A stretch of DNA of 64,000 bases, taken from assembly GCA_049290235.1 (NCBI GenBank), contig JBATNG010000034.1, positions 3,686 through 67,685 of the forward strand, written 5' to 3'. Shown piece after piece: positions 41,102 through 47,317 of the stretch. Under the pieces are notes generated by a model, which made no database searches, was not told the origin of the DNA, and saw nothing but the letters and a program-made list of their open reading frames with translations. The stretch is from Candidatus Moraniibacteriota bacterium. Lineage in GTDB: Bacteria; Patescibacteriota; Minisyncoccia; Moranbacterales; UBA1568. A program made the translations under genes and the position numbers. Position 1 is the stretch's first letter. Every line of letters starts with the position of its first letter.

Positions 41102-42019
41102 ATGTACGACTGTATTATCGTGGGCGGAGGTCCAGGTGGCGTTGCGGCGGGGGTCTATGCAGCGCGGAAGCAGATGAAGACGCTTTTTATCACCGAAAAC
41201 TTTCTCAGTCAGTCCGTCGTGTCAGCGTCGATCGAAAATTGGATCGGGACGGTGACGATTCCGGGCTGGGAATTCGGTCAGGCGCTCGAGAAGCATTTGC
41301 GTGCCCAAGAAGGACTCGAGATAAAAATCGGCGAACGTGCCACGAGCTTGGCTGGGCTTCCAGCTGGCGGCTACCGGATCACAACCGATAAGGGTGACTA
41401 CGAGACCAAAACCCTCATCATTGCGACTGGTGGTCGGCACCGTCACTTGGATATTCCAGGCGAAGAAAAGTTCAATGGCAAGGGTGTCGTGTACTGTTCG
41501 ACCTGCGATGCGCCGTTCTTTCGCGCAAAGAAAGTCGCTGTCGTCGGGAGTGGCAATTCCGCCCTGGAAGCCGTCGAGGACCTCTTGCCCTATGCAAATG
41601 AGATCGTGCTGGTGGTCCGAGGGAGCGAGTTGAAGGGCGACAAGGTAACGCAAGAAAAAATCCTCGCTTCACCGAAAGTGAGTGTCATCTACAATGGCGT
41701 CACGCAAGCGATTCTCGGCGAGGAGAAAGTCACCGGCCTGCGCTATCAGGATAAGGACACAACCGAATCGAAAGACATCACCCTCGACGGTGTCTTCGTC
41801 GAAATCGGCATGGTGCCGAACACCGAATTTGCAAAGGGTGTACTCGAGCTCAATGAGCGCGGGGAGATCATCCTCGATACGCGCCGGGCGACGACTTCGA
41901 AGCCCGGCATCTTCGCGACCGGGGACGCGACCGATGCACCGTACAAGCAGAACAATATCTCGACTGGCCTCGGTGTCACCGCTGCGCTGGCCGCGTATGA
42001 CTTCGTGAGAAAGGGGTAG
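41102..42019 (+). CDS. trxB: Thioredoxin reductase
   Basis: 'YDCIIVGGGPGG', redox 'CSTCDAPFF', 'VAVVGSGNSALEAVEDL'. The last ~20 codons are duplicated at 42963-43060. Confidence 0.9.
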   Translation: MYDCIIVGGGPGGVAAGVYAARKQMKTLFITENFLSQSVVSASIENWIGTVTIPGWEFGQALEKHLRAQEGLEIKIGERATSLAGLPAGGYRITTDKGDYETKTLIIATGGRHRHLDIPGEEKFNGKGVVYCSTCDAPFFRAKKVAVVGSGNSALEAVEDLLPYANEIVLVVRGSELKGDKVTQEKILASPKVSVIYNGVTQAILGEEKVTGLRYQDKDTTESKDITLDGVFVEIGMVPNTEFAKGVLELNERGEIILDTRRATTSKPGIFATGDATDAPYKQNNISTGLGVTAALAAYDFVRKG

Positions 42020-42076
42020 TAAAGACTTTCAACCATTGAAAAATCACGGTTTTCTGCTAGAATAAGGGGAGAAACG

Positions 42077-42358
42077 ATGTACTCTATGAGTCAGAATGCT
42101 GCTTTGAATTCATTCGTCAAGTCTCGACCGTACCTTGTGTGGTATGTGAAAGACATCGAACAATTGTCCGAATCATCGATCGTCGAGCATACGTTGAACT
42201 ATGGAAATTGGAGGGACGTTCAGGAACTCGTAGCGCTTCTCGGTAGGGAGAAAACAGCCGAAATCTATTCTTCCCAGAGAAAAGGGAAGAGAAATAACTA
42301 CCGACCCACTATTTCTCACTATTTCGATTTGTATTTCTCCCGTCATGCTACATGCTGA
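42077..42358 (+). CDS. Small ORF upstream of and overlapping the AbiEii-like toxin; putative cognate antitoxin
   Basis: 93 aa, 14-nt overlap with the toxin start, low GC. No recognised domain. Confidence 0.35.
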   Translation: MYSMSQNAALNSFVKSRPYLVWYVKDIEQLSESSIVEHTLNYGNWRDVQELVALLGREKTAEIYSSQRKGKRNNYRPTISHYFDLYFSRHATC

Positions 42359-42962
42359 AATCCTTTCAGAAGGACAGAGAGCGCTGTTGCCGCTGTTGCG
42401 GAAGCTCCATGATAGTTTCGGTTTAGTCGGTGGTACGGCTATCGCGCTCCATATCGGCCATCGCGAATCCGTTGACTTCGACCTGTTCACCACTGAACCG
42501 CTTCGCACCGACATGCTCCGAAGTGCCATCGTGTCTTTCGGGAAAAATATCCGTACGCTCGTCGATGAATCAGACGAGTACACGACGCTTGTCGATGGGG
42601 TGAAACTCACATTCTTGCGGTATCCTTTCCCGCTCGACTACCCCGTCGAATGGGACGGTATCGCAAGGCTTCCGGATCTTCTCACGCTTTCGGCGATGAA
42701 GGCCTACGCGCTTGGACGGCGAGCCAAGTGGAAGGACTATGTCGATCTCTGTTTTGTTATGGAAACAGGGCATTCATTACGCGATATCGCGCAGAGAGCC
42801 GAGAGTATCTTCGGCGACGAGTTCAATGAGAAGAATTTCCGTTCGCAACTTTCGTACTTCGACGATGTCGATTATTCTGAGGCGGTCATCTACCGTCCCG
42901 GCTTCGAGCGAAGCGATGAGGATATGCGGACGAAACTGACCGAGTTCAGTCTGGGTGAATAG
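42345..42962 (+). CDS. AbiEii/AbiGii-family (DUF1814) nucleotidyltransferase toxin
   Basis: N-terminal 'FGLVGGTAIALHIGHRESVDFDLF' is the DUF1814 NTase signature (GG[ST]AL...R.S.D[IL]D). Confidence 0.65.
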   Translation: MLHAEILSEGQRALLPLLRKLHDSFGLVGGTAIALHIGHRESVDFDLFTTEPLRTDMLRSAIVSFGKNIRTLVDESDEYTTLVDGVKLTFLRYPFPLDYPVEWDGIARLPDLLTLSAMKAYALGRRAKWKDYVDLCFVMETGHSLRDIAQRAESIFGDEFNEKNFRSQLSYFDDVDYSEAVIYRPGFERSDEDMRTKLTEFSLGE

Positions 42963-43060
42963 CGACCCGCGCCGTACAAGCAGAACAATATCTCGGCTGG
43001 CCTCGGCGTCACCGCTGCGCTGGCGGCGTATGACTTCATCCGCAAAGGCGGCACACACTA
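42963..43060 (+). pseudogene. Displaced trxB 3'-terminal fragment (native-codon-usage copy)
   Basis: Translates to RPAPYKQNNISAGLGVTAALAAYDFIRKGGTH*. Followed by a strong terminator. Confidence 0.7.
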
Positions 43061-43093
43061 GCTGGATAGCGAGTAGATGTGTAGCTCGTAGTA

Positions 43094-43117
43094 AGAGGCT
43101 CTAGATAGCCTCTTTTT
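43094..43117 (+). terminator. Rho-independent terminator (original trxB terminator)
   Basis: agaggct-ctagat-agcctct followed by TTTT. Confidence 0.5.
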
Positions 43118-43323
43118 CGCGCTCGAATACATTACCCTAGACAGAAACAGGAAAAAGGTGTATAATGGATTGTTCGTTAAAAATCCTGATTTTTGCCAGA
43201 GCAGCCAGCGCTTCTTCGTCCTTCGATACCAACATAGGACAGAAAAGAAGACTTTGCTGCTCTGGCAAACTCACGTTGTGAGAGCCTTGAGCACGGTGAA
43301 AACCTATCATAGGAGAAAGCACC

Positions 43324-43893
43324 ATGTCTCAAATCGCAGAATTCCACGCCGCCATCCTGCAAAACCTCCCGGATCTCACTTCGCAAGAAATGCAGGAATG
43401 GATTGGACCGCGCCGTGCGACCTTACAGGCGGCGTTGGCACGGGTGTTGGCTGGGTACCGCCAAATTGCCCTTGATTACCGCCTCACACTCGAGCAGATG
43501 ATCGCCCTCGGTTGCTACGACAGGAAGAACAGCGACATTACGGCCGAACGCTTCCCTTTGGTGGGCAGCGGCGTGGCTGAGCTCGAGACGAAGCCATTTC
43601 ACTTCAACAAGCGTGTCTCGTCGGAGTCAGCAATCCAGCTGATCGCGGCCGCCGACCCGGTACGTCCTTGGCAAGTAGCCAAGATCGAGCACGGGCTCCG
43701 CTATGGGGCCGCCTATCCAGAGGAACAGCGCCAGTTCCCGATCGTGATGCTCGGTTCTTCCTGCCAGGTGTACGGCAGTCGCTGCGTGTCAGTTCTCTGC
43801 ACGGATGTCTCCGAGCGGGACCTGGACCTCGACTTCTGGGACGGTGAGTGGTTTGCCCGCTGCCGTTTCCTGGCCGTTCGCCCGGTGCTCTGA
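43324..43893 (+). CDS. DGR target (variable) protein, 189 aa; the VR encodes the C-terminal ~40 residues
   Basis: Good RBS (aggaga). The C-terminus '...GSRCVSVLCTDVSERDLDLDFWDGEWFARCRFLAVR' is encoded by the VR. Confidence 0.8.
   Translation: MSQIAEFHAAILQNLPDLTSQEMQEWIGPRRATLQAALARVLAGYRQIALDYRLTLEQMIALGCYDRKNSDITAERFPLVGSGVAELETKPFHFNKRVSSESAIQLIAAADPVRPWQVAKIEHGLRYGAAYPEEQRQFPIVMLGSSCQVYGSRCVSVLCTDVSERDLDLDFWDGEWFARCRFLAVRPVL
43755..43881 (+). repeat. DGR variable repeat (VR)
   Basis: 127-bp ungapped alignment to TR 44231-44357 with 18 mismatches, all where TR has A (VR has G or T). The last 22 nt, ctgccgtttcctggccgttcgc, are identical (IMH-like). Confidence 0.85.
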
Positions 43894-43935
43894 ACCTGGA
43901 GCCTTTGGGACAGCACTCTGTTCCTTTGGCCCTTC

Positions 43936-43972
43936 CCGCCGTATGCATGCATACGGCGGTCTTCTTTTTTCT
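43936..43972 (+). terminator. Perfect 24-nt palindromic hairpin plus T-run downstream of the VR
   Basis: ccgccgtatgca|tgcatacggcgg followed by tcttcttttttctg. Confidence 0.5.
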
Positions 43973-44230
43973 GATACAGTAGAGATGACAAATGAAAAAT
44001 CCATGGTTACGGCTGTGGGTAATTTGTCCGCATGCTGCAGAGTGAGAGTCGGGACGGCTACGGCTTTCTCGAGTGCGCTCGGCGGAATGTTCTCAAAAAC
44101 AGAGACAAGTTGGTGTGAGGTGCTCGGTAACAGATAAGGTTACGAATACGATACAGCCCTGAGAATTTTCCTCTGCTTTTCGGTGGGTGTATGGATCAAG
44201 GGGCGGTGGTACGGATGGTACCCTACACAT

Positions 44231-44357
44231 TTCTTCCTGCCAGATGAACGGCAATCGCTACGTGTCAGTTCTCAACACGAATGACTCCAAGCGGAACCTG
44301 AACCTCAACAACTGGGACGATGAGTGGAATGCCCACTGCCGTTTCCTGGCCGTTCGC
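44231..44357 (+). repeat. DGR template repeat (TR)
   Basis: The counterpart of the VR. The ORF predicted over it (44187-44387), Asn-rich with AAY codons, is not a gene. Confidence 0.85.
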
Positions 44358-44776
44358 TACTCTTCCTGTTTCTCCTGGTATGTGTGACCAGGAGTTTTGT
44401 TTATGAGTTGGCGCCTCCATCCGCCGAGCATCCGACCAATCTCCCCAAGTTGTTCGGCGAGGTAAGCGTACTTGCCATTATCGAGCGCTCGGGTATCCCA
44501 AGCGAGCTGTAATAGGAGTTTCAAAAGGTCAACCCGCGAGATGGCCCTGTTGATGAGGAGTTGCTTTTCGGTTGTTTGTGAGTAGCTCGCCAGGAAACAA
44601 TACTCGATAGTGAGGAGAAATATATCATCAATCTTCGATCCTATGGTGAAGCGCCGGGCTTTCGGAAAGTGGACGAGATATTCCTGCCAAATACCGTACG
44701 CGTCTTTGAGCTTGAGTACTACGGGGATGAGCTTTGGTTGCAGAAGGTTCGGGGGGGGGGTATTCTGTGAGGGCAT
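44357..44776 (-). CDS. avd: Avd-like accessory variability determinant (four-helix-bundle)
   Basis: C-terminal ~120 aa 'LKDAYGIWQEYLVHFPKARRFTIGSKIDDIFL...AISRVDLLKLLLQLAWD...EIGRMLGGW' match the Avd/PF05635 pattern. Start uncertain (M111 or M117 of the long ORF). Contains a C10/G10 tract encoding PPP. Confidence 0.65.
   Translation of the reverse strand: MPSQNTPPPNLLQPKLIPVVLKLKDAYGIWQEYLVHFPKARRFTIGSKIDDIFLLTIEYCFLASYSQTTEKQLLINRAISRVDLLKLLLQLAWDTRALDNGKYAYLAEQLGEIGRMLGGWRRQLINKTPGHTYQEKQEE
44751..44760 (+). repeat. G10 homopolymer at the avd 5' end, 20 nt upstream of the RT start codon
   Basis: Ten G at 44751-44760. Confidence 0.9.
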
Positions 44777-44779
44777 ACA

Positions 44780-45781
44780 ATGAAAAAACTCCATAACGCT
44801 TATCAGAATATCATCTCTGTCGAAAATTTGCTCGATGCGTGGCGAGAATTTGTGAGGGGGAAGAAAAAGAAGTGCGATGTGCAGGCGTTTCAGTATGCGC
44901 TCACTGATAATATTCTTGCACTTCATGCTGATTTGAAAAGCAAGGCCTATGTCCATGGTGGTTACGAGGCCTTTAAGGTCTCTGATCCGAAACCCCGCCA
45001 TATTCACAAAGCCTCCGTCCGCGACCGGATCCTCCATCACGCCTTGTATCGTGTCCTCTATCCGTACTTCGACCGGGCCTTCATCGCTGACTCGTACTCT
45101 TGTCGGATTGGGAAGGGAGTACACCGATCCCTCAATCGTTTTCGATCATTTGGCCGGAAAGTATCGAACAATCACACTCGAACGGTCTGGATACTCAAGT
45201 GTGATGTCAGAAAGTGCTTTGCTTCGGTCGATCAGGACGTTCTCATGAACATCCTCAAAAAACACATTGCTGATCCGGATACACTCTGGCTGCTGGAAAG
45301 AGTCATTACTAGCTTTGATTCAGGAACACCTGGCCGAGGGCTTCCTCTTGGCAATTTGACTTCGCAACTCCTCATCAATATCTATCTGAATGAGCTCGAC
45401 CAGTTTGTGAAACAGCAACTGAAAGCGAAGTACTATATCCGGTATGCAGATGATTTCGTCGTTTTTTCCAAAAATAAAGACGAGTTGAAAAATATACTCA
45501 TTCTGATGGATGTGTTTCTCAGACTCAATCTCTGCTTCGAACTTCATCCGGACAAAGTGTTCATCAAAACCATCGCAAGCGGTGTGGACTTCCTCGGCTG
45601 GGTGCATTTCCCTGATCACCGTGTCTTGCGGACGACGACCAAGCGAAGGATGTTTCGGAGATTGAGTGAGAAGAATATCGAGTCGTATCTCGGATTGCTT
45701 TCGCATGGGAATGGGTTGAGGTACGAGATAGAGAGAATAGCTTTGACAGAGGGGGTAAAACCTGCTATACTGGGAGAGTAA
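44780..45781 (+). CDS. DGR reverse transcriptase
   Basis: RT domains with 'LPLGNLTSQLLINIYLNELD' (the DGR-type [ILV]GxxxSQ motif) and the catalytic 'YIRYADDFVVF'. 333 aa, typical DGR RT size. Confidence 0.9.
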   Translation: MKKLHNAYQNIISVENLLDAWREFVRGKKKKCDVQAFQYALTDNILALHADLKSKAYVHGGYEAFKVSDPKPRHIHKASVRDRILHHALYRVLYPYFDRAFIADSYSCRIGKGVHRSLNRFRSFGRKVSNNHTRTVWILKCDVRKCFASVDQDVLMNILKKHIADPDTLWLLERVITSFDSGTPGRGLPLGNLTSQLLINIYLNELDQFVKQQLKAKYYIRYADDFVVFSKNKDELKNILILMDVFLRLNLCFELHPDKVFIKTIASGVDFLGWVHFPDHRVLRTTTKRRMFRRLSEKNIESYLGLLSHGNGLRYEIERIALTEGVKPAILGE

Positions 45782-45791
45782 AAGAAGTAAG

Positions 45792-45820
45792 AAACGGGTG
45801 AAAGCCCCGTTTTCTTTTTT
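45792..45820 (+). terminator. Rho-independent terminator after the RT
   Basis: aacggg-tgaaag-ccccgtt followed by TTCTTTTTTT. Confidence 0.5.
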
Positions 45821-46054
45821 TACATCGTTCTTGTGCCAAAATAAAATAAACACAAAAAGAAAAGCGCGAAAACGCTTTCAACCAATTTTGGAACAGGTGT
45901 CCCTGTCCCACGCGGCAGCACTAATAGAGGCCTGCCGCCCACATCAATGATTCCGCTCTCGGCTCCGGCTGATGGGCGGATTATCATTTCTGGCCCAGAA
46001 AATAGGCCTTTTCCCGCCTTGAAAGAAGCCCTCGTTCGAGCTATACTCGGGGTT

Positions 46055-47317
46055 ATGGAAGTCTTTCGTATCCAAGGTGGAAAGCGGCTTGCCGGAGCTA
46101 TTCCCGTCTATGGTTTGAAGAACGCAGCGACGCCGATCATCGCGGCGACGCTCTTGTCTCGTGAGCGTTCGGTGCTCGAGAATATGCCGCGGATCGAGGA
46201 TGTGTTCCGCATGCTCGAAATCGTCGAGAGCCTGGGAGCGACGGTCGAGTGGCGAGGTGAGCGCACGGTCGCCATCACGCCCGCTGAGATTGACCCGGCG
46301 CGCGCTGACCAGGACAAGGTGAAGCGGCTCCGTTCGTCGATCTTGCTCCTCGGGTCGCTGTCGGCGCGCTTTGATCGATTTGAACTGCGACAACCGGGTG
46401 GCTGTGTCATCGGGGCGCGGCCGGTGGATACGCATGTCGATGCTTTGGCCAAGCTCGGTGTCGTCATCACGACAACCGAAAAGGGGTATGCGGTTGATGC
46501 GAGCGAACGTTGTCCTGGGAAGGTTGTCCTGAGAGAGATGTCGGTCACCGCGACCGAGAACGCGATGATGCTCGCAGCCCTCATTCCAGGACAAACGGTT
46601 ATCAAGATCGCGGCGTGTGAGCCGCATGTTGTCGACCTCGGACACTTCTTGGAGAAGATGGGTGCTCGAATTACTGGCCTCGGGACACATACGATCACGA
46701 TCATGGGGAAATCTGAACTCAGTGGTGCGACCCATGCCATCATACCGGATCACAATGAAGCCGCGACCTTCCTCGCTCTGGGTGCGGCAACAGGGAGTGA
46801 GATCACCGTCGAGCACGCACGCGAAGATGATCTCGATATCGTTTTGGAAAAGTTGAAAGAATTCGGTGCAAGTTTCACGATCACTCCAGATGCTATCACC
46901 ATTCATCCAGCACAGCCGCTTCGGGCCGTAACGAAAATTGATACGCGGCCATACCCGGGCATCCCGACGGATATCCAGGCACCGCTGGCCGTATTGGCGA
47001 CGCAAGCTGAGGGGGAGACGCTCATTTTTGATACGATGTTCGAAGGCCGCTTTAATTATGTAGCGGAGCTCGAAAAAATGGGGGCAAAGCTGACGGTGCT
47101 CAATCCCCATCAGGTACTCGTTCATGGGCCAATCGCTCTCAAGGGTACGGTGATCAAGAGCTACGACCTGCGGGCCGGGGCATCGCTCATCATCGCGGCG
47201 CTCGCGGCGTCAGGCGAGACGATTATCGAGGATATCTATCAAGTCGATCGTGGCTATGAAGCGATCGAAGAACGCCTCTCGGCAATCGGTGCGAGTATCA
47301 TCCGCGAGACGAGATAA
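46055..47317 (+). CDS. murA: UDP-N-acetylglucosamine 1-carboxyvinyltransferase
   Basis: 'FRIQGGKRLAGAIPVYGLKNAATPIIAATLL', EPT fold. Confidence 0.9.
   Translation: MEVFRIQGGKRLAGAIPVYGLKNAATPIIAATLLSRERSVLENMPRIEDVFRMLEIVESLGATVEWRGERTVAITPAEIDPARADQDKVKRLRSSILLLGSLSARFDRFELRQPGGCVIGARPVDTHVDALAKLGVVITTTEKGYAVDASERCPGKVVLREMSVTATENAMMLAALIPGQTVIKIAACEPHVVDLGHFLEKMGARITGLGTHTITIMGKSELSGATHAIIPDHNEAATFLALGAATGSEITVEHAREDDLDIVLEKLKEFGASFTITPDAITIHPAQPLRAVTKIDTRPYPGIPTDIQAPLAVLATQAEGETLIFDTMFEGRFNYVAELEKMGAKLTVLNPHQVLVHGPIALKGTVIKSYDLRAGASLIIAALAASGETIIEDIYQVDRGYEAIEERLSAIGASIIRETR

Follow-up and report, generated by a model that had tools for sequence, protein, structure and literature searches.

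Among described diversity-generating retroelements (DGRs), the closest to the locus presented here are those of the Patescibacteria (CPR), namely B3 of Wu et al. 2018 (PMC5758913) and DGR clade 2 of Roux et al. 2021 (PMC8144416). In the B3 architecture, which accounts for 90% of CPR DGRs, the TR is followed by a reversed avd and then by the reverse transcriptase (RT) gene (PMC5758913). The window, by which we mean the whole 64-kb stretch of DNA that was analysed, shares with the CPR DGRs the gene order, the reversed avd, the host group, the small target, the chromosomal cassette, the C-terminal VR and the adenine-only divergence, and its core anatomy shows no difference from theirs (PMC5758913, PMC8144416). 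The host is Candidatus Moraniibacteriota, a name attached to proteins that match the RT, and part of the target, at 100% identity. Since the gene order is that of B3 and the host is of this group, the cassette is of an already known kind. The cassette itself is ordinary: this clade and architecture, as well as small targets lacking signal peptides, have already been described (PMC5758913, PMC8144416). We are highly confident that the locus is a chromosomal DGR of the Patescibacteria (CPR) clade, arranged as target/VR, TR, avd (on the opposite strand) and RT (Table 1).

The DGR of Bordetella phage BPP-1 (mtd-avd-TR-brt; 10.1101/2023.10.23.563531) has in common with the window a homologous RT (6.9e-43), Avd, adenine mutagenesis and a TR rich in AAY codons. 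In both, the target has a C-type-lectin fold, the TR is immediately followed by a stem-loop, and a duplex borders its 5' end. The two differ in the placement of avd, which in the window is found past the TR and on the other strand, and in the layout of the RNA. The Bordetella structured RNA (Sp, ~140 nt) lies 3' of the TR, whereas the structure in the window is mostly 5' of it. In Bordetella, the two sides of the stop duplex come from opposite flanks of the TR, one upstream and one downstream, whereas the segment 5' of the TR in the window covaries with a partner ~100 nt further upstream. Unlike Bordetella, the window has a terminator-like hairpin 14 nt after the TR. Finally, the Bordetella DGR belongs to a phage, while the window has a cellular host and its target is not a tail fibre.

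Table 1. Positions of the DGR and its associated elements in the window
Feature	Position	Strand	Remarks
Promoter-like site of target gene	43138-43166	+	TAGACA, 17 nt spacer, TATAAT; 11/12 consensus matches; kept in relatives
Hairpin in target 5' UTR	43192-43269	+	Arms 43192-43216 and 43245-43269; inverted repeat of 25 nt, 84% complementary
Target gene	43324-43893	+	189 aa; N-terminal two-helix segment, then predicted C-type-lectin-fold domain
VR	43755-43881	+	Residues 145-186 of the 189-aa target; aligned with TR
Invariant GC-rich VR 3' end, IMH-like	43860-43881	+	Counterpart in TR at 44336-44357
Spacer, stop codon to hairpin	43894-43935	+	CTTGG/CTTTGG-like motifs
Perfect 24-nt palindrome and T-run	43936-43969 (palindrome 43936-43959)	+	10-bp stem, 4-nt loop; z = -4.3
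Extended -10 box of TR RNA (TGaTACAGT)	43972-43980	+	TGnTA(t/c)A(c/g)T kept in most relatives; inferred promoter
Structured 5' leader of TR RNA	43987-44230	+	Helices H1-H7
Leader helices H1; H2	43987-93/44022-28; 43999-44007/44012-20	+	
Leader helices H3; H4	44040-43/44077-80; 44049-59/44062-72	+	
Leader helices H5; H6; H7	44113-24/44217-28; 44127-31/44139-43; 44156-60/44200-04	+	
TR	44231-44357	+	30 adenines in 20 codons; ~1e17 possible protein variants
avd, accessory variability determinant	44357-44776	-	139 aa
Post-TR hairpin and U-tract	44372-44404	+	14 nt after TR; overlaps avd 3' coding end on the other strand
G10 homopolymer	44751-44760	.	C10 in avd sense; codons 6-9 (T-P-P-P); 19 nt upstream of RT ATG
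DGR RT	44780-45781	+	333 aa; LGNLTSQ, YADD; RVT_1 match 7e-23
Terminator-like hairpin and T-run after RT	45791-45820	+	

An earlier note on this DNA had claimed a gapless VR/TR pair with adenine-specific divergence, and our re-alignment over 127 nt reproduced both its coordinates and its pattern. VR and TR differ at 18 positions, at every one of which the TR base is A (11 A>G, 7 A>T), and no A>C was seen among these substitutions of the window VR. No non-A position differs, and 12 TR adenines are unaltered. The likeness between the two repeats stops abruptly at either border of the alignment. When the TR is read in the VR frame, 29 of its 30 adenines fall at codon positions 1 or 2 and ten of its codons are AAY; all the altered VR codons (15/15) are non-synonymous. 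The final 22 nt are as they had been described, identical in both repeats (22/22) and 68% G+C, with divergence starting immediately after them; by analogy, the VR 3' end would function as the IMH. The ORF called over the TR had been dismissed as an artefact, and we agree, because it sits inside a strongly covarying RNA and has no family match. An A-to-N tolerant scan and tblastn found no second VR, target, RT or leader copy in the 64-kb window.

The RT was expected to be of the DGR type, and both signatures were found in it: LGNLTSQ, an instance of I/LGxxxSQ (motif 4), and YADD, an instance of YxDD. Its best solved relative is the 328-aa RT of 8ub7 (6.9e-43), which we take to be the Bordetella phage bRT, judging by its length and the aligned sequence; group II intron RTs matched at 1e-16. 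At E <= 1e-60 the RT has at least 7,927 homologs. An Avd-like protein had been placed between TR and RT. The gene is real, but it lies on the minus strand and is divergent from the RT, so that the two genes stand head to head with their ATGs 3 nt apart. At its other end, the avd stop codon shares 1 nt with the last TR base. The protein matched PF22296 (bAvd) at 5.5e-11, above the curated cut-off, and NF033474 (DivGenRetAVD) at 3.9e-17, under its cut-off, while a comparison of its sequence with solved structures gave no match. Avd homologs in relatives are 37-85% identical to it and have the same place and orientation as in the window.

Like anatomy was found in 18 related loci, with VR/TR pairs of 126-135 nt, 7-26 A-type mismatches (14-26 in 17 of the loci) and 0-2 mismatches of other types. 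The order trxB, target, TR, avd, RT, murA recurs in relatives, with mreB next where the sequence extends, and, judged by this recurring synteny, the DGR resides on the chromosome. When two contigs that encode identical RT proteins were compared over 2.5 kb, 25 sites differed; the VR accounts for 23 of these, 21 are at TR adenines, and one is a G-tract indel. A second identical-RT group has 15 VR differences. The VR has diversified between strains of these sister elements.

The TR lies within a discrete RNA of ~410 nt (~43987-44400, the probable ends), whose 245-nt 5' leader is strongly backed by covariation. The extended -10 motif lies 6-7 nt ahead of the first RNA helix. With all 10 helices of the RNA taken together, pairing holds in 91.9% of cells, as against 40-50% in slid controls, and 46 of the 71 pairs changed on both sides, a number reached by none of 500 shuffles. 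The strand of the RNA is fixed by invariant G-U pairs. A search with nhmmer found the leader in every related cassette with sufficient upstream sequence, excepting L026, L036 and L062, and in the window copy every helix is intact. The RNA has no family match in Rfam. The post-TR hairpin (helix 10) has compensatory changes in 4/6 pairs; four relatives have the stop codon of avd within this hairpin, and therefore coding cannot explain its conservation. Its positional analogue is the Avd-binding stem-loop (10.1101/2023.10.23.563531), and the hairpin may, by this analogy, be the terminator of the TR RNA, an Avd-binding stem-loop, or both. H5, which abuts the TR 5' end, is by its position a candidate stop duplex, and the roles of the other individual helices are likewise putative. 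When leader segments were searched for a primer duplex with the TR 3' end, only short, non-covarying candidate pairings were found.

The target is small, lacks a signal peptide, a transmembrane segment or a known domain, and had been singled out for a fold check of its C-terminus. Structure prediction gave a C-type-lectin (CLec) fold carrying the VR at the C-terminus, and the target is probably a small, cytoplasmic binding protein of this fold. Its family comprises 7,686 representatives (clusters at 50% identity) and has no Pfam model; a comparison with a viral structure library gave nothing significant. The target has no detectable sequence similarity to TvpA (2y3c), Thermus TaqVP (PMC6328139) or nanoarchaeal AvpA, and differs from all three in its distinct N-terminal two-helix segment. 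The hairpin in the target 5' UTR is preserved, with compensatory changes, in L067, L069, L076 and L072, and has no match in Rfam. In the spacer that follows the stop codon, CTTGG/CTTTGG-like motifs occur in 2-6 copies in most relatives, while an automated count gave none in three.

Herein, we propose how these parts would work together. A ~410-nt non-coding RNA would be made from its own extended -10 promoter and would consist of the 245-nt folded leader, the 127-nt TR and the 3' hairpin. The RT, with Avd, would copy the TR into cDNA, with misincorporation opposite the 30 template adenines. The cDNA would then replace the VR and so recode as many as 20 codons in the target's C-terminal strands, giving ~1e17 possible variants.

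One further element of the cassette bears on the control of this process. The G10 homopolymer, a tract conserved across the family, leaves avd in the ON frame in the window, and it is the sole G/C run of >= 8 in the 64 kb. One subclade carries (CT)10-12 in place of the G tract, and a second group shows a G10 versus G9 length difference, all of this length polymorphism being that of relatives and not of the window's own population. With the SSR contingency loci of Neisseria, Haemophilus and Campylobacter (PMC3315296, PMC5084427) the cassette has in common a poly-G/C or dinucleotide tract in the first codons, a length that varies between otherwise identical sequences, and a mixture of in-frame and out-of-frame strains; it thus has the marks of such a locus, a 5' coding repeat that is polymorphic in length and whose length sets the frame. 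The gated gene is different, being an accessory factor of a targeted mutator here and a surface structure or restriction-modification gene in the SSR contingency loci, and the switching here is predicted from sequence comparison. The tract suggests a candidate phase-variable control of mutagenesis. Slippage of G10 would shift Avd in and out of frame and would thereby turn mutagenesis on and off; it might also retune the RT 5' region. At any time, only a subpopulation would diversify the target. Taken as a whole, a CPR DGR mutator gated by a slipping poly-G/(CT)n tract at the avd/RT starts, together with an RNA scaffold that lies mostly 5' of the TR and is permuted relative to Bordetella, is a reading that we put forward tentatively, as coming close to an even chance but falling short of it.

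The tract may not be an on/off switch at all. It could be a divergent avd/RT promoter or 5'-UTR spacer, a site of transcriptional slippage that provides a constant low level of Avd, or an H-DNA-forming purine/pyrimidine tract, or its length differences could be sequencing errors, and we take this to be a serious possibility, although on the doubtful side. The tract is 19 nt upstream of the RT start and, in some relatives, within the called RT ORF; three of five identical-RT groups have no tract-length polymorphism; and homopolymers are error-prone in sequencing, such that the length differences could partly be assembly errors. However, two unrelated repeat types, with opposite purine/pyrimidine strands, occupy one spot, which argues for repeat instability and against a sequence motif, and, across 564 kb of related loci, 26 of the 27 repeats of this kind are at the avd-start position. 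Contigs that otherwise show zero differences over 1.3-2.6 kb carry tracts of G9, G10 or G11, and of these only G10 yields an ATG-started, full Avd; in the ON/OFF census, roughly one locus in two is a single step off the avd frame. An internal start may bypass the tract in L084-L086, where an ATG downstream of it gives a 110-aa Avd, whereas the window Avd has no ATG before residue 117, and no GTG or TTG was seen in the residues just past the tract. The other feature with a disputed role is the palindrome, which the earlier note had set about 40 nt downstream of the VR as a DGR homing hairpin. The perfect 24-nt palindrome and its T-run are present, but they begin 42 nt past the stop codon and 54 nt past the end of VR/TR homology. 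In the Bordetella element the VR-side hairpin is nearer to the VR than this. Because relatives keep a covarying GC hairpin with a T-run, the palindrome is first of all an intrinsic terminator, and a role as a homing cruciform is a possible second one. We find it an evenly balanced matter whether it is solely a rho-independent terminator of the target gene, with no part in retrohoming. Its GC stem and T-run are those of an ordinary terminator, the TR RNA promoter begins directly after it, and the layout is common to most relatives, ~13 of 18 of which carry, 54-85 nt past the VR, a GC hairpin that ends in a T-rich tail and differs in stem sequence; in a published survey, high-confidence inverted repeats followed the IMH in only 34% of DGRs (PMC5758913). 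Conversely, the stems, at 8-15 bp, are of unusual length and rich in GC, and their loops have 4 nt; in Bordetella and Legionella, efficient homing is reported to require a hairpin of this form (PMC5758913). A dual role, in termination and homing, is possible.

The two remaining alternatives concern the element as a whole. It could be a fossil, descended from a DGR whose diversification has ended, with past activity preserved in the VR pattern. Scanning metagenomes for the window IMH sequence recovered only relatives ~65% identical, exact look-up of the window RT and Avd sequences found neither, and the one other assembly of the window population is interrupted from 54 nt upstream of the VR to 45 nt beyond the G tract, a break that is no more than suggestive; neither scan nor assembly yielded a near-identical second copy of the window VR. 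Loss of the DGR core is common in the family: the closest target homologs (L057, L067) as well as L003 have no TR-avd-RT but retain the target along with some or all of the leader. Activity in the CPR clade is under average in published surveys (PMC8144416). Nevertheless, we consider a fossil unlikely: the ORFs, the RT catalytic motifs and the RNA helices are all intact, avd is in the ON frame, and the 127 nt contain zero non-A mismatches, which a decaying pair would gather, as L038 and L045 have. The window DGR is predicted to be currently active. Far less credible is that the locus is no DGR, but a group II intron, retron or defence-type RT lying by chance beside a diverged direct repeat. 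Among NCBIfam models, the RT best matched those for group II introns, Drt and retrons, each at a score far under its cut-off, and Rfam searches of the region, at gathering thresholds and at E <= 1, matched neither an intron RNA nor a retron msr/msd RNA. The probability that 18 random mismatches would all land on the 30 TR adenines is 2.7e-14, the match to bRT is 27 orders of magnitude better than that to group II RTs, the LGxxxSQ motif is present, Avd adjoins the RT, and the arrangement recurs with A-only divergence in 18 loci. Group II intron or retron identity is ruled out by these observations, and the probability left to a chance pairing of this kind is negligible.

The clade already has thousands of members, to which the cassette adds one more well-formed case. 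Neither a 245-nt structured leader 5' of the TR nor a repeat tract at the avd start was found described in PMC5758913, PMC8144416 or the literature searched, and no regulator of DGR activity turned up in that literature. Its family combines a strongly covarying 5' domain with no more than ~40 nt of RNA past the TR, which makes it a natural test of whether the architecture of the DGR RNA is permutable. The cassette offers a clean reference both for the regulation of the mutator and for the generality of the RNA-guided priming known from Bordetella. The CLec-fold target family, which has no Pfam model, is borne by organisms that depend on host cells. Were the switch real, slippage within the essential avd gene would give a costly targeted mutator a simple means of bet-hedging regulation.

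Re-alignment of VR with TR gave an ungapped alignment of 127 nt, with a sharp end of the homology on either side. All 18 mismatches fell at TR adenines (11 A>G and 7 A>T), another 12 TR adenines were identical in VR, and no difference occurred at any other base, exactly the A-only divergence that an earlier note on this DNA had claimed. Random placement of 18 mismatches would put every one of them on the 30 TR adenines with a probability of 2.7e-14. In the frame of the target gene, 29 of the 30 TR adenines occupy codon positions 1 or 2 and TR holds ten AAY codons; each of the 15 changed VR codons encodes an altered amino acid, and with A-to-N changes in the 20 codons that contain adenines, ~1e17 proteins were computed to be possible. 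The 3'-terminal 22 nt of the two repeats do not differ and are 68% G+C. No further copy of the window's own VR was found in the sequence collections searched; present-day activity of this cassette is what we infer.

The RT matches RVT_1 (7e-23) and carries the LGNLTSQ and YADD motifs, which bears out its earlier reading as a DGR-motif enzyme. Its nearest solved structure is the 328-aa RT of entries 8ub7-8ube (6.9e-43), which, from its length and aligned sequence, we take to be the Bordetella phage DGR RT; matches to group II intron RTs were weaker (~1e-16). The Avd-like protein proposed between TR and RT is real, as its bAvd match attests, but the strand was wrong: avd lies on the minus strand. 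The NCBIfam model DivGenRetAVD also matched it (3.9e-17), under the model's cut-off. The ATG codons of avd and RT stand head to head, 3 nt apart, and the avd stop codon overlaps the final TR base by 1 nt. The DGR interpretation was right, except for the avd strand and the weight given to a hairpin downstream of VR.

A 100% identical RT protein and a 100% match to target residues 1–126 are both named from Candidatus Moraniibacteriota MAGs, and the MAGs that supplied target homologs are all of Patescibacteria type. With the order target, TR, (avd), RT, the cassette corresponds to ‘Architecture B3’ of Wu et al. (PMC5758913); DGR clade 2 of Roux et al. is cellular and CPR-restricted, and its targets typically have neither transmembrane nor known domains (PMC8144416). 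Because the cassette has the B3 order and fits clade 2, it belongs to an already-known type and is an ordinary CPR B3/clade 2 DGR. At least 7,927 RT homologs were found at E <= 1e-60, and the target family comprises 7,686 representatives (50% identity clusters), and some members have the C-type-lectin-like domain two or three times in tandem, in proteins of 320–570 aa (P0174-P0178, P0187, P0192 and others).

Target homologs were located in 56 genome loci, and ~22 of these keep the window's gene order. An A-tolerant self-alignment recovered a VR/TR pair of 126–135 nt in 18 of these ~22, with 7–26 A-type mismatches (14–26 in 17 of the 18) and 0–2 others. Two contigs whose RT proteins do not differ from each other (75% identity to the window RT) show 25 differences within 2.5 kb: 23 in VR (21 at TR adenines), one elsewhere and one indel in the G tract. 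In another identical-RT group, 15 VR positions differ. The relatives confirm the cassette anatomy and show VR diversification activity. The synteny trxB, target, TR, avd, RT, murA recurs in relatives at 67–75% RT identity, with mreB beyond murA where the sequence is long enough; therefore, the cassette is a long-term chromosomal resident.

Several observations concern the surroundings. A rve-family transposase gene adjoins sister cassettes (locus L069, 3500-4648, between RT and murA; L072/L073, position 1 to ~850). The window's population has a second assembly, GCA_049663145.1, 100% identical over window 42014-43701 (L066) and 44806-46307 (L068); its sequence is interrupted from 54 nt ahead of VR to 45 nt past the G10 tract, and both break points are near the two predicted hypervariable sites. 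Directly upstream of the DGR, the final 80 nt of the trxB-like gene occur twice (89% identity). The two copies enclose a gene for an AbiEii toxin and one for a weakly DUF6922-like partner, an arrangement that resembles the insertion of a small toxin-antitoxin module at the 3' end of trxB. In L084-L086, loci of a different DGR lineage, the target likewise has an AbiEii gene in front of it. A strong promoter-like site precedes the target gene, and the 5' UTR of ~150 nt contains a long hairpin that shows compensatory changes in relatives and has no match in Rfam; this region may be a regulatory leader. G+C falls to 0.41 at window 24001-25000, against a window average of ~0.55.

The layout of the VR-TR interval was defined by aligning 18 loci. 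The CTTGG/CTTTGG-like motifs occur in 2–6 copies ~8–9 nt apart, in the same place in most relatives, and persist in loci without the DGR core. The earlier note had placed the palindrome that follows where DGR homing hairpins occur, and gave it too much weight. In most relatives, the GC hairpin has another stem sequence, lies 54–85 nt from VR and carries a T-run.

Features of the DGR cassette and its upstream flank (window positions)
Feature	Coordinates	Strand	Remarks
Duplicated trxB-like 3' end	41936-42015 and 42969-43048		80 nt
AbiEii toxin gene and DUF6922-like partner	42077-42358, 42345-42962		
Target 5' region	43138-43320		promoter-like site
Target 5' UTR hairpin	43192-43216/43245-43269		
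Target gene	43324-43893		
VR	43755-43881		
CTTGG/CTTTGG-like motif spacer	43894-43935		target stop codon to terminator hairpin; 18-locus alignment
GC hairpin and T-run	43936-43959		24-nt palindrome; next element 3' of spacer
Extended -10 box (TGnTAtACT)	43972-43980		3' of GC hairpin
Conserved leader	43987-44230		~245 nt, up to TR; strong covariation
Helix H5	44113-44124 with 44217-44228		
TR	44231-44357		
Post-TR hairpin, then TTTT	44372-44404		14 nt 3' of TR; covarying
avd	44357-44776	minus	Pfam bAvd 5.5e-11
G10 tract	44751-44760		
RT	44780-45781		

RNAalifold predicted ten helices across the TR RNA from 15 sequences. By explicit count, 91.9% of the cells in these helices are paired, against 40–50% when partners are slid by 1–3 columns; 46 of the 71 pairs have changes on both sides, and none of 500 shuffles reached any of these measures. 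Since several G-U pairs are invariant, the plus strand is the one that folds. H5, with compensatory pairs at 9 of 12, ends 2 nt short of TR. The avd stop codon falls inside the post-TR hairpin in four relatives, so avd coding cannot explain that hairpin. The TR RNA matched no Rfam family. A leader HMM found a single copy in the 64-kb window and detected the leader in each related cassette whose available upstream sequence is long enough, except L026, L036 and L062.

In Bordetella, a stem-loop directly 3' of TR grips Avd, a duplex of TR-5' sequence with the 3' spacer stops cDNA synthesis, and the cDNA is primed from the spacer; for 207 of 278 DGRs, Handa et al. predicted putative counterparts of these elements within a span of 40 nt upstream and 100 nt downstream of TR (10.1101/2023.10.23.563531). 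By position, hairpin 44372-44394 would fit the Avd-binding stem-loop and H5 the stop duplex. Unlike the Bordetella RNA, however, the window family has the covarying partner of the TR-proximal strand upstream, its structure lies mostly 5' of TR, and its 3' hairpin is terminator-like. Because of these three differences, we propose a discrete TR RNA of ~410 nt whose layout would be permuted relative to that of Bordetella. A primer duplex was looked for in this RNA and none was identified.

The G10 run is the sole G/C homopolymer of at least 8 in the window and forms avd codons 6–9 (T-P-P-P). A repeat recurs at this site across the family (L001/L002, L069-L075 and others): most relatives have G6–G13, one subclade has (CT)10–12, and in one MAG the site lies inside a run of Ns; in 564 kb of related loci, the site holds 26 of the 27 such repeats. 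Four contigs of one identical-RT group carry G11, G9, G10 and G11 and are otherwise identical over 1.3–2.6 kb; G10 alone gives an ATG-started full-length Avd. A second group has G10 twice and G9 once, while three others are monomorphic: G8 (five contigs), G9 (three) and G10 (three). In roughly half of the loci avd is out of frame; one repeat unit more or less brings an upstream start back into frame. The window's avd is in the ON frame; it offers no other ATG ahead of Avd residue 117, and no GTG or TTG was seen in the codons directly beyond the tract.

This is the sequence signature of a contingency locus. Since cDNA synthesis in Bordetella requires Avd, the simplest reading is that the tract switches mutagenesis on and off stochastically. 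Alternatively, the tract, which lies 19 nt ahead of the RT ATG, might affect RT through a promoter or 5'-UTR; it might also cause transcriptional slippage or form H-DNA, or the length differences might be sequencing errors. Our literature search, of incomplete coverage, found no link of DGRs or avd to repeat-mediated phase variation.

A further alternative is that the window copy is a fossil that no longer diversifies. In the loci of the closest target homologs (76–78% protein and 84% nucleotide identity), the terminator and the initial 80 nt of the leader still follow the target, and other sequence then takes the place of the TR-avd-RT segment; in L003, the whole leader is followed by nusA. 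‘Orphan’ homologs (L057, L067, L003, L010, L019, L024, L025, L050) keep the target with a full or partial leader and no TR-avd-RT, which indicates recurrent loss of the DGR core. Such frequent loss among relatives keeps the fossil reading alive, but in the window copy the ORFs and RNA helices are intact, avd is in frame, and VR and TR show no non-A mismatch. L057 and L067 have their leader stub joined to a gene-less copy of a VR-downstream spacer and hairpin. These two strains have flanks ~99–100% identical and target genes 94% identical overall, with heavy differences in VR and in the N-terminal helical region as well, a pattern that suggests diversifying selection or recombination outside the DGR's reach.

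In conclusion, the interest of this DGR lies in two family-wide and directly testable features, the repeat tract and the structured TR RNA, both of which are displayed by the clean copy in the window.
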